Origin: Eledone cirrhosa
Lineage: Eukaryota
Assembly: GCA_964016885.1 (NCBI GenBank)
Contig: OZ024740.1
Span: 139,128,001-139,192,000 of the forward strand
Length of the DNA: 64,000 bases
Reading direction: 5' to 3'
Shown here: positions 2,581 to 61,094 of the stretch, one piece after another
Layout: each line of letters begins with the position of its first letter
Numbering within the stretch: the stretch's first letter is position 1
Program-made: the position numbers and the translations under genes
Notes under the pieces: model-generated
What the model saw: the letters and a program-made list of their open reading frames with translations, nothing else
The model's database searches: none
What the model was told of the DNA's origin: nothing

Positions 2581-3570
2581 TACAAATAAATATATGATAG
2601 GGATAAACACTGATACAAGTATACATGTGTTCGCATTGCAAATGACCAAGTTAGCTAGATTGAAAAATACTAATTAAAATAATACGGTTTGCCTCTCGAT
2701 TTAAAATAATAAATCAATAAAAACAAACCTATATTGCCAATAGTCGTGATACCCGGACAAATTTTAAATTTTAAATTTGTTTCGCAACAATTAAGTGAAA
2801 GTTCCTATTCCTGTGCTTTTCTGCGGGTATCCAGAAATTGGTAAGTTTCACTTCAAAATGCTTAAGAAGACTGAGAGAAATGTGTTGTTGAACGCACATG
2901 TGTTACAGCGCCTAGCTTGTCTCATACTCGTGCCGCTAAAAATAGCAGCCGGTTTTATGGGACTAAAAATTAGCTCAACGCATGGAGCCGAGAATATTAT
3001 ATATAGAGTTATAAACTCAAATAGTCTTTTACAAATAAATAGCTCAAAGACAGGAATATTTCAGAGCCGTAAATGAATATATGATAGGGATAAACACTGA
3101 TACAAGTAAACATGTGTTCGCATTGCAGGCGCTGTGACACATGTGCTTTCAACAACACATTTCTCTCAGTCTTCTTAAGTATTTTGAAGTGAAACTTACC
3201 AATTTCTGGATACCTGCAGAAGAGCACAGGAATGGGAACTTTCACTTAATTGTTGCGAAACAAATTAAAAATTTAAAATTTAAAATTTGTCCAGGTATCA
3301 CGGCTATTGCCAATATAGGTTTGTTTTTATTGATTTATTATTTTAAATCGAGACAGGCAAACCGTATTATTTTAATTAGTATTTTTCAATCTAGCTAACT
3401 TGGTCATTTGCAATACGAACACATGTATACTTGTATCAGTGTTTATCCCTATCATATATTCATTTGTATTACACGGCTCAGAAATATTCCTTTCTTTGAG
3501 CTATTAAATTGTAATTTAATTGTAAAAGACTATTTGAGTTTATGACCATTTGAGTTTATAACTCTATATA
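2581..3570. repeat. Permuted tandem plus inverted repeat unit: A-B-D-C-A followed by inverted (C-A-B)
   Basis: 2581-2913 is the reverse complement of 3127-3468, and 3003-3073 of about 3474-3570. 2590-2640 is repeated directly at about 3075-3127. Related sequence at about 30515-30610. Confidence 0.85.
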
Positions 3571-3629
3571 TATTATATATATATATATGCATTTATTGAT
3601 ATTTGCTTGTTTATCGGAGTTTTGAGTGT

Positions 3630-3795
3630 CTACCTGAGATGTTTGGAAGTTGTGGCACGCCGCCCAGGCTTTGCTCTTCCTCTCGACCACATCATCTTCC
3701 GTATTCCCAATCTTTACTCCCAAATACAGGAAGTCCTTAACCAATTCCGGCAGCTTCCCGCCTACATTAGTAATCTTCTCTGACTTCTTAATATT
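3630..3795 (-). mobile_element. RTE-clade LINE RT fragment
   Basis: Translation LVKDFLYLGVKIGNTEDDVVERKSKAWAAC resembles the RTE RT thumb (F.YLG..I....D+..R..KAW). Confidence 0.6.
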
Positions 3796-3876
3796 GATAT
3801 ACATATATTAATATTAATATTCATATATATATATATATATATATATATATATATATATATATATATATATATATAG

Positions 3877-58321: not shown

Positions 58322-58354
58322 GTTGGTGCTGAAAAGTTAAAAGAGGAAAAGAGA

Positions 58355-60223
58355 TCACTCACCCTTCGCCTCCTGGGGACCAGGCCGCACGATTTCCATG
58401 GGGGTGTTGGAGGGGTTGTCTGGATGGGTGGTGGTTTCCGGCGGGGTGGGGACGCAGATGTTTGGTGGAGTGGGGTCTGGTGGGATGGGGGTGTCTGGGG
58501 TGGGGAGGCATTTGAGAAGGACGCGGTTGAGTGGTTTCACGCAGGAATTCCCCACATCCTTCTCAAATGTTTCTTTTAGGGACCTATAAGTTTGTATAGG
58601 GACCCTAATCAGTTTTAGGTTCAGTTTTTTGCTATTTTTTATAGAGTGGGCGAAAGTTTTCCCTTCGGTGAAAACCGAAGGGTCGTTCGTGATGGTCTCC
58701 ATTAGTGTTTTGTTTTCAGTGTTTATGTAAGTGTAAGTGTAATTTTCTTGTGTTGTGTTTGTTTTTGTCTGTAGTTCTTGTGTGTGCTTTCGTTTTGTTG
58801 TAGGTATTTTGTTTTCAGGAGGTGGGGGTTTTGTTTGTGATATTTTTGTTGTTTGTGTTGGTGGTTGTATGTTTGTGGTAGTGTTTGCTGGTTTTTTGCT
58901 TTTGTGATGTCTTTTCTTTCTTTTCGAGCGATGGGGTTCTCCCTCGTCTTCACTGGGTGATGGCGAGATAGCCTCATCTGTTGTATCGTCTGTGTGATTG
59001 GGGAGGGGTATGTCTTGGGGAGCTGTTGTGTCTGTATGTGATTTTGCAGTGGTTTTAGGTGGAGTGGGGTTGGGTGGGACTGTGTTTGTTGTGGTTATTT
59101 TTGTGTGTTGGTGTTGTTGTTGTGGTGGTGTTGGTGGTTGTGTTGTTTTGATGGGTGTCGGCAGAAGAGCCTTTTTTTGGTTCATTAGTTTAGGACAGGA
59201 AGCCCTCAGGTGACCCCTGCTAAAGCAATGGTAACATGAAGGCCGCCTACCCTCAACCGAAAGGTTTATGTAGGTGAGTCTGTCCAGGAGTACACGCTGT
59301 GGGATCATAGCTATTCGCTCTGGGCTCATTTGCACCAGAACTTCAATGCTAGTCCCATTGAATACATCTCTGGGGGACTTGCCTACTGACAGTATTCTGT
59401 CTTCATCAAAATTGATGAAGCCGCACAGTATCCACCATATGTTCACCTTTGGTGTGACACTTGTGATTCTGATCTTTTGTGTCCTTTTTCCCATGTATGT
59501 AGGGAAAAAGGTGTACAGGTTGGATACAATTGGCGACACAGAGTAATTTTGGGCCGTCAATTGATCCTTCATGAGTACCGAAATACTCCCAAAAAGTTTG
59601 CTTCTTTGAATGAATGCAATATCATTCATTGAATCTTTGAAAACCAGTTCAATATCTTTCTGTGACAATTGGACTGGTTTTCGGGTAGAATTGGAAACTG
59701 TCCTAAAAACTATCGTTTTGAGAGCAGTTTCCTTGCGAATTTCTACCGGAGAATTGATGCTGAAAGCACCATTTTTTTCGAAGGTGACATATCTCTTAGC
59801 GTCCTTTAAAAGGTGTTCAGCATTTGTTATGTCGAGATATATCAATTGTTCTTTCTTTTGAACTTTCTCCGCAAAGAAGATTTTTGGTTTCTTTGTGGAA
59901 TCCGTATTGGTGGTGTTGTCATTATTGTTGTTATTGTTGTTGTTATTCTTGTTGTCACCGATGTTGGTATTATCCGTATTTTCCTTGGTGTTGTTGTTGT
60001 CTTTGATGCTGGTGTTATTGGCGTTGTCTTTATTTTTTTCTTTGTTGTTGTTATCATTGTTGCTTTTATCATCATTATTGGAAGTACCAGTAATGCACTG
60101 GGTAATTGCTGGCCTTGTGCCAAAAGTAGAAACAATTATTGGTATTGCTGTTATTTTTGTTGTCATTGAACTGTTTGGTGTCATTTGTGTTGTTTGGATG
60201 TGAATTCGTTTTTTTATTTTCAT
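58355..60223 (-). CDS. Tx1 ORF1 (gag-like, CCHC zinc knuckle), 622 aa
   Basis: Open frame directly upstream of ORF2; CYHCFSRGHLRASC; Asn-rich N-terminus and Pro/Thr-rich linker; homologous to copy A ORF1 fragments. Confidence 0.85.
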   Translation of the reverse strand: MKIKKRIHIQTTQMTPNSSMTTKITAIPIIVSTFGTRPAITQCITGTSNNDDKSNNDNNNKEKNKDNANNTSIKDNNNTKENTDNTNIGDNKNNNNNNNNNDNTTNTDSTKKPKIFFAEKVQKKEQLIYLDITNAEHLLKDAKRYVTFEKNGAFSINSPVEIRKETALKTIVFRTVSNSTRKPVQLSQKDIELVFKDSMNDIAFIQRSKLFGSISVLMKDQLTAQNYSVSPIVSNLYTFFPTYMGKRTQKIRITSVTPKVNIWWILCGFINFDEDRILSVGKSPRDVFNGTSIEVLVQMSPERIAMIPQRVLLDRLTYINLSVEGRRPSCYHCFSRGHLRASCPKLMNQKKALLPTPIKTTQPPTPPQQQHQHTKITTTNTVPPNPTPPKTTAKSHTDTTAPQDIPLPNHTDDTTDEAISPSPSEDEGEPHRSKRKKRHHKSKKPANTTTNIQPPTQTTKISQTKPPPPENKIPTTKRKHTQELQTKTNTTQENYTYTYINTENKTLMETITNDPSVFTEGKTFAHSIKNSKKLNLKLIRVPIQTYRSLKETFEKDVGNSCVKPLNRVLLKCLPTPDTPIPPDPTPPNICVPTPPETTTHPDNPSNTPMEIVRPGPQEAKGE

Positions 60224-60572
60224 TTTGTCTTTCCATCTCTATAGTATCTAGTGAAGAAGACGTTGTTGACTGCGAGCTTTGTAGTCTTACCGCCTCTCCA
60301 CCACCATTATCGTTGGACGCAGCGTTCATAACGTAATCAAAATTTTACAATATTTTTTCCAAGATTCGATGGAGAAAAATTTTTTAAATGGATATTCCGC
60401 CCCTGAAGTGGCGAAAATGAGTTGACCCACCAGCTGAAGGTCCAGACGGGTGGTCAAGTTACACAATGATATAAAATTGAACTAAAAACTCACGATTTTT
60501 TCTTACATAAATTAACGGAAACTTCTCCGCGAAGTGACACGCGTCTGATAGAGAGATAGATATATTTCTTTA

Positions 60573-61094
60573 AGTTAAAAGTGTACATCCACATATGTAT
60601 ACTGAAATACTAGTATGCATATAAATACACACACGTATACATATGTACATGTACCGAGCTTTTCACTGGACACTTTACTGTGAGTGTTCAGCTAGTCCGT
60701 ATGTAAACACACAGACAAACCGGTTTTTAGAGTCATACTGGTTTTCGAGGAAACGGTATATATTGCTGATGATATGTAATAACATCGAAACTAGTCCAAT
60801 ATTCCTGTCTGGCTCTCTGGAGAATAGAGGAAAGGTGTTTCCTCGAAAACCAGTATGACTCTAAAAACCGGTTTGTCTGTGTGTTTACATACGGACTAGC
60901 TGAACACTCACAGTAAAGTGTCCAGTGAAAAGCTCGGTACATGTACATATGTATACGTGTGTGTATTTATATGCATACTAGTATTTCAGTATACATATGT
61001 GGATGTACACTTTTAACTTAATTGTTTAAGCGTCAGTCATACAAAAGTGAGTTACAAACGAAACGAAATTTAATTTCGTTTCGTTATTTGTTTT
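60573..61094 (+). mobile_element. 522-bp non-coding foldback element with hammerhead and 12-bp TSD
   Basis: TATATTTCTTTA at 60561-60572 and 61095-61106. Arms 60570-60754 and 60837-61021. Confidence 0.85.
60760..60802 (+). ncRNA. Type I minimal hammerhead ribozyme motif
   Basis: ATATTG-CTGATGA-TATGT-AATA-ACATC-GAAA-CTAG-TC-CAATAT. 6-bp stem I, palindromic ACTAGT stem III, GUC triplet. Confidence 0.88.

Follow-up and report, generated by a model that had tools for sequence, protein, structure and literature searches.

We considered a 64,000-nt stretch of contig OZ024740.1 (assembly GCA_964016885.1, positions 139,128,001 to 139,192,000 of the forward strand), hereafter "the window". It is microsatellite-rich animal DNA with tandem LINEs (long interspersed nuclear elements); it harbors eleven long inverted repeats (IR1–IR11), most of which are probably insertion products of Penelope-like elements (PLEs) or of their non-coding derivatives. 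All the statistics reported below were computed inside the 64-kb window or inside the PLE loci fetched for comparison.

Eleven inverted repeats and their microsatellite context

A preliminary description of the window had listed at least eleven long inverted repeats, and self-BLAST combined with pairwise alignment recovered all of them in place; ten block shuffles of the window did not yield any local inverted match. The arms are 38–333 bp long, with an identity of 93–100% outside gaps, and are perfect only in IR3 and IR11; the spacers measure 5–214 nt (5–131 nt in ten of the eleven). A further inverted match at 46668–48055 was discarded, since it consists of microsatellite only. The eleven repeats, with the length and identity of their ungapped arms, are the following:

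IR1, sense copy 2581–3127 (minus strand) and inverted copy 3127–3570 (plus strand): arm 333 bp, 96.7%, with an additional 120-bp pair, 95.0%; the sense copy is a partial tandem of a ~490-nt non-coding unit with a 57-nt direct repeat (3071–3127/2584–2640), hairpin 1 at 3067–3042, hairpin 2 at 2988–2973 and a decayed hammerhead; the inverted copy has a hammerhead (core 3217, one core change) and hairpin 1 at ~3476–3501.
IR2, 3877–4684 (plus): arm 147 bp, 99.3%; inverted copy 3877–4040; sense partial tandem 4041–4684 of a ~563-nt unit, with a direct repeat 4042–4119/4605–4684; hammerhead core 4527 with a long loop 2, lying in the tandem unit ~290 nt past the arm; hairpin variant GTTC/GAAC at ~4124 and an imperfect second hairpin at ~4241; (TA)n at both ends.
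IR3, 16791–17272 (minus): arm 155 bp, 100%; sense copy 17000–16791, which ends at (TA)n and has a hammerhead (core 16950) with a U3/A8 swap; inverted copy 17001–17155, which likely continues, judging from the motif, into a tail (17156 to ~17272) with an imperfect hairpin.
IR4, 17685–18114 (no strand assigned): arm 136 bp, 95.6% (arms 136–146 bp overall); spacer 128 nt; one-sided extension of 10 nt; (TG)n on the left and (TA)n on the right; no hammerhead or hairpin found.
IR5, 27686–27872 (minus): arm 44 bp, 97.7%; inverted copy 27872–27829; sense copy 27828–27686 with hammerhead core 27818; ~65-nt tail with a hairpin that is degenerate (by eye); (TA)n at both ends.
IR6, 28337–28634 (no strand assigned): arm 93 bp, 94.6% (arms 93–96 bp overall); spacer 75 nt; one-sided tail of ~33 nt; (TA)n at both ends; no hammerhead found.
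IR7, 28662–28975 (no strand assigned): arm 123 bp, 98.4% (arms ~123 bp overall); 16-nt spacer made of an A/T run; one-sided tail of ~34 nt; (TA)n at both ends; no hammerhead found.
IR8, 33182–33385 (minus): arm 61 bp, 98.4%, with a hammerhead 3' half; hairpin at 33253–33230; (TA)n at both ends.
IR9, 37246–37760 (minus): arm 132 bp, 93.2%; hammerhead candidate (core 37479, one change) occupying the whole spacer; sense copy ending at (TA)n; inverted copy with a possible ~100-nt tail lacking the consensus hairpin.
IR10, 37770–38029 (minus): arm 38 bp, 97.4%, the inverted copy being 38 bp long; sense copy truncated within loop 2 of the hammerhead; hairpin at 37865–37827.
IR11, 60570–61021 (plus): perfect arms of 185 bp, 100%; the 82-nt spacer holds a canonical type-I hammerhead (core 60766), 11 nt away from the junction on the left; located between two LINEs, with no (TA)n array or consensus hairpin found.

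Unlike a plain foldback, IR1 is a partial tandem joined to an inverted copy. Partial tandems (pseudo-long terminal repeats) are present only in IR1 and IR2, the remaining repeats being below one unit in length. Nine of the eleven have an end within 12 nt of (TA)5 or longer; the mean was 1.09 when the repeats were placed at random in the window outside the LINEs and two satellites, and none of 20,000 placements reached nine. The repeats are thus mostly adjacent to (TA)n, as had been described, except for IR10 and IR11, and the left arm of IR4 adjoins (TG)n. The outer ends, judged by eye, mostly have 1–4 nt in common with the microsatellite. The claim that one arm runs on into a one-sided tail, lying between arm and microsatellite, was confirmed clearly for IR1, IR2, IR4, IR5, IR6, IR7, IR8, and IR10; for IR3 and IR9 we infer such a tail, and in IR11, where the extension is undefined, the spacer may by analogy belong to the right arm.

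The eight repeats that can be oriented from their hammerhead have their 3' ends outward and a head-to-head junction. The sense copy starts 10–11 nt upstream of the hammerhead core in IR5 and IR11, 38–50 nt upstream in IR3 and IR9, inside loop 2 in IR8 and IR10, and ~6 nt past the cleavage position in IR2. The repeats had been considered unrelated in sequence, which is mostly correct; nevertheless, a weak alignment that exceeds shuffles links IR2 to IR10, and relatives of IR8 and of IR10 occur elsewhere in the window (see below). The likeness of IR2 to IR7, IR6 to IR7, and IR3 to IR9 was no better than that of shuffles.

Short, AT-rich inverted repeats in a TA context resemble miniature inverted-repeat transposable elements (MITEs). 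In contrast to MITEs, which are recognized by flush terminal inverted repeats and a target-site duplication common to copies, the outer ends are offset from each other, or else one of the two arms has no corresponding flank, hammerheads lie at the turn, no terminal repeats are common to the copies, and the solo relatives of IR8 and IR10 are not inverted. The repeats therefore do not appear to be of the MITE type, in agreement with the preliminary description.

Some further observations concern single repeats. An older inverted pair (17422–17479/18140–18201, 82%) encloses IR4 beside a hammerhead candidate at 17400, and the 10-nt extension of IR4 matches the sequence adjoining it. Moreover, a word of the type TACAC/TAACAC/TACCAC recurs, perhaps by chance, near several 3' ends (28337–28369, 28662–28695, 4770–4800, and 27635–27655).

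Hammerheads, a PLE remnant, and a conserved hairpin

Hammerheads were searched for with a relaxed type-I descriptor (long loops and a swapped 3–8 pair allowed, score of at least 20), which retrieved 11 candidates in the window, compared to 0.25 in shuffles and none in the reversed window. The descriptor had been loosened twice after inspection and was therefore checked on independent DNA, that is, on 80 Hydra-type PLE loci (the best 80 of 120 relatives from a metagenome scan, some of them representing the same family): 51 of the 80 harbor a sense hammerhead, compared to one antisense match and one in the reversed controls. Five of the window candidates fall inside repeat spans (IR1, IR3, IR5, IR9, and IR11; null 0.85, P = 0.00085) and a sixth in the tandem unit of IR2; in addition, IR8 and IR10 contain hammerhead 3' halves, that of IR10 being recognized by eye and matched by its relative at 36475–36610. 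On sequence criteria, eight of the eleven repeats would thus carry a full or half sense-strand type-I hammerhead. The association noticed earlier is real within the window, and the number of five repeats with a hammerhead or half-hammerhead at the turn was an undercount. The relaxed descriptor did not retrieve any hammerhead from IR4, IR6, or IR7; a decayed one suspected by eye at the left end of IR6 had no BLAST support.

Rfam recognized only two hammerheads, both sub-threshold: that of IR11 (HH9, 29.6 bits against a gathering score of 52) and a solitary one at 4897–4941; the Rfam microRNA matches, all under their gathering scores, are microsatellite or long-hairpin noise. The U3/A8 core swap of IR3 also occurs in the natural hammerheads of three PLEs bearing open reading frames (ORFs; loci L018, L047, and L059), and U3/A8 hammerhead variants are active. 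Five full candidates lie outside the listed repeats (2208 on the plus strand; 4935, 16698, 17400, and 34552 on the minus strand); those at 2208 and 4935 are followed by a hairpin ~90–105 nt on and then by (TA)n. An inverted arm is present on 8 of the 16 hammerhead-bearing pieces counted, including three solo half-bearing stubs.

Non-inverted pieces, together with one inverted tail, accompany the repeats:

4752–4945 (minus): solo PLE-type 3' stub with hammerhead core 4935, hairpin 4844–4823 and (TA)36.
27505–27664 (plus): non-inverted relative of IR8 (110/132 columns identical), with a hammerhead 3' half, hairpin 27583–27606 and the long 3' end at (TA)n.
30979–31868 (minus): 5'-truncated Hydra-clade PLE, with an endonuclease-region remnant, a 3' untranslated region and a 3' end akin to the IR8 arm, stopping at the short site at (TA)19.
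31869–31934 (plus): inverted tail-only piece at the 5' junction of the PLE remnant, consisting of a hairpin (31869–31889) and 45 nt, up to (TA)70.
36475–36610 (minus): non-inverted relative of IR10 (86/108 columns identical), with a decayed hammerhead and its end at (TA)28.

The endonuclease-region remnant (31323–31878, minus strand) shares 37–55% identity with eight proteins and has one frame change near 31430. It shows a CxCX5C linker (CSCRKPDEC) and a C-terminal CPH; its relatives P0006/P0007 have the RWK and/or DKT motifs, the reverse transcriptase (RT) itself being missing from the remnant. According to passages of Craig et al. (2021; PMC8557442), Hydra-clade PLEs are marked by a CxCX5C linker, no CCHH, CxxC and CxH at the C-terminus, and RWK and DKT in the RT. 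On its linker, its C-terminus and the motifs of its relatives, the remnant is assigned to the Hydra clade. Pfam gave no match for the remnant, nor for five of the eight relatives scanned, and viral contigs searched with the PLE alignment did not contain any relative.

The 3' segment of the remnant aligns with the IR8 arm over 38 of 51 columns (score 47, shuffle maximum 29.5) and stops where the inverted copy of IR8 stops. This is the only direct tie between a repeat family and an ORF: none of the eleven repeats shows PLE ORF similarity inside it. An exact 20-base pattern of the IR8 family had no matches in the metagenome contigs. A weak PLE-protein match to the right of IR10 (E 0.017) was lost in the window-wide profile search (E 8.6).

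Downstream of the hammerhead, many of the loci share a hairpin of the form GCTC…GAGCAC, which we searched for in the Hydra-type loci and in the window. Its 3' half is present in 25 of the 43 loci having at least 150 nt, 24 of which have the 5' half as well. The strict pattern gave 46 sense matches in 32 of the 80 loci and five antisense matches (shuffle mean 4.3 on both strands). The first hairpin begins 73–101 nt after the core in 25 of the 51 hammerhead loci, with a second one 62–70 nt later in four; in several further loci, the second hairpin sits at the 5' end of the element. Nineteen loci reach (TA)n: ten end 67–100 nt past the core, with no hairpin before the end, eight end at 138–164 nt, that is, 51–74 nt past the start of hairpin 1, and one ends at 176 nt. 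Insertion ends in these loci are accordingly placed directly 5' of hairpin 1 or near hairpin 2. Both types of end occur within one family (short in L004/L031, long in L003/L039). Furthermore, the start of unit-length PLE copies lies within the hairpin pair or a few bases ahead of hairpin 2 (L020:965–1193 and 4374–4602; L003, L007), and the 5' boundary can thus fall on the long 3' site.

In the window, the hairpin is present in IR1, IR2, IR8, and IR10, degenerate in IR3 and IR5, and absent from IR4, IR6, IR7, IR9, and IR11. Ends located 5–6 nt before a hairpin were found in IR1, IR2, IR3, and IR8. The sense copy of IR1 ends at (TA)n 6 nt short of the hairpin-1 position, and its inverted copy passes hairpin 1 and stops at (TA)n ~10 nt before the hairpin-2 position. 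In IR2, the sense copy ends ~5 nt before the variant hairpin and the inverted copy 5 nt before the second, imperfect one; the sense copy of IR3 stops 5 nt before the imperfect hairpin sited in the flank of the inverted copy; in IR8, 5 nt separate the end of the inverted copy from the hairpin, and the sense copy runs on to 48 nt beyond it. The inverted copy of IR10 and its solo relative at 36475 both end within the hairpin loop.

A weight matrix trained on 20 loci retrieved seven window matches with a score of at least 18 (null 1.5) and 18 with a score of at least 14, for which the null is 7.25, so that weak matches are not individually reliable. Once the six matches inside the LINE block were excluded, (TA)n lies 30–80 nt downstream in 7 of the 12 remaining matches scoring at least 14 (background 9%, p = 2.6e-5) and upstream, as a control, in 1 of 12. 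The best match in the window is the hairpin at 31869–31889 (plus), which starts exactly at the end of the ORF homology and has no partner arm. Other hairpin-bearing tail pieces, in which no hammerhead was found, lie at 161–212 (minus) and 7700–7795 (plus), the latter ending at (TA)n 68 nt past the hairpin; a further match at 34557–34598 (minus) is directly upstream of a hammerhead candidate, and its 3' end doubles as stem I. Between the arms of IR1, a compensatory pair in hammerhead stem I was found (rough chance 0.004), and the window copies show both-side changes at two hairpin pairs, in copies that were chosen for pairing.

Neither the hairpin pair nor twin priming for PLEs was found described in the literature searched, although older Penelope papers and figures were outside its reach and absence from print is not established. 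Word searches of the text and supplement of PMC8557442 did not retrieve any hairpin annotation; the consensus sequences Hydra-2_Amil, Hydra-1_Ajap, and Hydra-2_Ajap, as given there, visibly include the hairpin. The pair is possibly an undescribed cis-element.

Formation of the inverted copies

The anatomy described above is not in itself that of a new system, since it has already been published for PLEs. In passages of PMC8557442, the Hydra-clade insertion unit comprises 5' truncation, partial tandems, an inverted 5'-truncated copy at the 5' end, a one-sided tail, a sense hammerhead near the 3' end, and a (TA)n target; its supplement includes Hydra-1_Obim of Octopus bimaculoides, with a (TA)n preference and a hammerhead, as well as one Hydra family with an inverted 5'-truncated copy, and the origin of the tail and of the inverted structures is stated there as open. 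Hammerheads in PLEs (PMC4209133), tandem copies between inverted repeats with a 34-bp repeat (PMC2377424), and 31 recently active PLE families in O. vulgaris (PMC13282606) are also reported in the parts of those sources consulted. Taken as a group, the window repeats show these features too, to which the linker of the remnant and the RWK/DKT motifs of its relatives can be added. They differ in being non-coding and 120–990 bp long; moreover, the tails of Hydra-type copies measure ~55–115 nt, rather than the 30–40 nt of the published passages.

Short non-coding units with type-I hammerheads are also known as animal non-LTR retrozymes, for which an origin as non-autonomous derivatives of PLEs is proposed in passages of PMC7229834 and bioRxiv 10.64898/2026.07.22.740005. 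The partial tandems of IR1 (~490 nt) and IR2 (~563 nt) consist of units of this kind. Retrozymes are recognized by at least two tandem units with complete hammerheads and by circular RNA; IR1 and IR2 are 1.1-unit tandems with one hammerhead per copy, and no window unit has two complete intact tandem hammerheads; the retrozyme passages make no mention of inverted copies.

The 3' ends of the arms face outward and lie at microsatellites, the junctions lie in or near the hammerhead, and the two 3' ends are staggered. Taken together, these data suggest that eight or more of the eleven repeats represent short stubs from the 3' end of PLEs or of their non-coding derivatives, mostly in (TA)n, each likely derived from separate priming on both cut target strands with the two complementary DNAs (cDNAs) joined head to head; we regard this as probable. 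The stubs themselves are most likely inert debris.

In such a process, both strands of the cut (TA)n would each prime a reverse transcription and the two short cDNAs would be joined; the arm would then represent their overlap, the spacer the difference between their stopping points, and the tail the difference between their starting points. In the Hydra-type families, the two starts may be set by the two tandem GCTC…GAGCAC hairpins, copying beginning ~4–10 nt 5' of each. A second cDNA stopping after the tail would leave an inverted tail without a repeat, as at 31869–31934. In this view, the hairpins would bind the protein, a dimer would do the priming, and two RNA copies or strand displacement would produce the overlap. 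More tentatively, at somewhat less than even confidence, we propose that the hairpin pair docks two PLE protein subunits, each setting the RT start a few bases upstream and priming from one (TA)n strand. A single rule of this kind would account for the tail, the inverted copy, and the tail-only inversions, would provide a tag for non-coding PLE parasites, and would leave octopod genomes dense in long hairpins (~6% of the window).

Two precedents are relevant. The Poseidon element of Anolis, PAc, cuts and extends in vitro both strands of AT-rich DNA from two internal RNA starts near a stem-loop, with the tail between them, and a dimer was predicted (Frangieh et al. 2024, PMC11167929). PAc belongs to another clade, its starts fall within one AC-rich stem-loop at the ORF start, and inverted repeats are not discussed there; the window starts, in contrast, appear to precede two separate conserved hairpins.

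The second precedent is LINE-1 twin priming, in which a reverse transcription starts from each of the two target strands and the resulting products are joined head to head. In LINE-1, the two pieces are free of overlap, and microhomology lets the second primer anneal at varying positions, whereas the window pieces overlap into inverted repeats and start at fixed family sites.

Several points weigh against this interpretation. IR4, IR6, and IR7 show neither hammerhead nor hairpin, and the consensus hairpin is also missing from IR9 and IR11; the inverted copies of IR10 and IR5 end inside the hairpin loop and at the 5' stem, respectively, not before the hairpin. The motif was drawn from the same loci used for counting, which include repeated families, and 18 of the 43 loci with enough sequence are without it. 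Its four core pairs never vary in the loci, and the compensatory changes were seen in window copies picked for pairing. The hairpins of IR3, of IR5, and of the second site of IR2 are imperfect and were set by eye, and several fold weakly (z from −0.25 to −2.65). IR1 could have formed by snap-back followed by another jump via the 57-nt direct repeat, or by two neighbouring insertions, and IR2, IR5, IR8, IR10, and IR11, taken alone, fit snap-back.

The first alternative, which we consider doubtful, is a mixed origin in which IR4, IR6, and IR7 are MITE-like DNA elements or replication fold-backs at microsatellites and not PLE products. In descriptor, motif, and protein searches, these three were negative for hammerheads, hairpins, and PLE protein similarity, and IR4 adjoins (TG)n; the earlier attribution of all the repeats to PLE-type insertion is shown for eight of the eleven. 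Yet all three show a one-sided extension, which in IR6 and IR7 measures 33–34 nt, the classical PLE tail length in passages of PMC8557442, with (TA)n on both flanks; moreover, a short cDNA would stop before the hammerhead.

The preliminary description ascribed all the repeats to one template-switching mechanism, and a PLE stub might indeed acquire its inverted arm if one cDNA folded back near the hammerhead and was copied on itself. The short spacers, the perfect or nearly perfect arms of IR2, IR3, IR8, and IR11, and the presence of all the arm sequence in the sense copy of IR2, IR5, IR8, IR10, and IR11 would agree with this. However, one cDNA folding back cannot supply sequence that it does not contain, and for this reason two priming events fit better: in IR1, and probably in IR3 and IR9, the inverted copy extends past the 3' limit of the sense copy, and the piece at 31869–31934 is an inverted tail only. 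Neither can come from a one-cDNA snap-back, and the single mechanism proposed is not supported. The compensatory pair between the IR1 arms is a further argument against it, and the inverted copies of IR8 and IR10 stop where their solo relatives stop. At the protein level, head-to-head inverted ORF copies were found in loci L014, L054, and L016, with offsets from ~60 nt to 1.3 kb, the latter, in L016, being hard to reconcile with fold-back; L041, L049, and L056 are DNA-level candidates. Overall, template switching appears unlikely.

A different possibility is that the repeats are kept or used as double-stranded RNA substrates for ADAR editing or small-RNA production. If transcribed, they would form perfect helices of 28–184 bp; they cover 6.2% of the window, an octopod is the probable host, and, according to part of PMC9989829, A-to-I editing in metazoans acts mainly on young repeats. 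On the other hand, no host gene was identified in the window, the arm substitutions resemble neutral decay, and editability is no function. Differences between the arms of the eight oriented repeats (A/G 12, C/T 5, other 13; IR4, IR6, and IR7 were left out because their orientation is lacking) do not show a significant editing-type bias (p = 0.14). We consider such a use quite improbable.

Lastly, the repeats can hardly be assembly or library artefacts (fold-back chimeras), for which the identical arms of IR3 and IR11 might speak, because the arms have diverged in nine of the eleven, the ends fall at family-specific sites, the turns lie in unique sequence outside (TA)n, and the same form is found in unrelated loci and in print.

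Other repeats of the window and significance

Three LINEs related to one another, presumably of the Tx1/L1 type, lie in tandem on the minus strand at 48644–64000: a decayed copy, a copy with long open frames (627 aa, a 424-aa endonuclease, and a 754-aa RT), and one running past the window edge. Among named sequences, the LINE ORF2 is closest to those of Argonauta hians (66%) and Acanthosepion pharaonis (51%), which points to a probable coleoid host, likely an octopod. Extra LINE 3'-end fragments lie at 32451–32829 and 54321–54629, and decayed RT-bearing retroelement fragments at 22788–25847 (RVT_1 24395–24718, zf-RVT 25347–25847) and 19435–20265. A dispersed short repeat family (2427–2557, 13150–13270, 42076–42197, and 60082–60140) is, we assume, similar to short interspersed nuclear elements; in addition, a 16-bp satellite (45611–46458, 53 copies, 93% matches) and a complex CAC/ACA-rich array (11494–12800) were found.

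As a class, the inverted repeats are ordinary, being known PLE insertion scars, and the added value lies in the cis-element. With a conserved hairpin pair marking the two 3' ends, the formation of the PLE tail and inverted copy becomes testable in an existing in vitro system. Moreover, the hairpin may identify non-coding PLE stubs otherwise filed as MITEs or unknown repeats. At a density of 11 inverted repeats per 64 kb, they would amount, in an octopod, to a large potential reservoir of double-stranded RNA.

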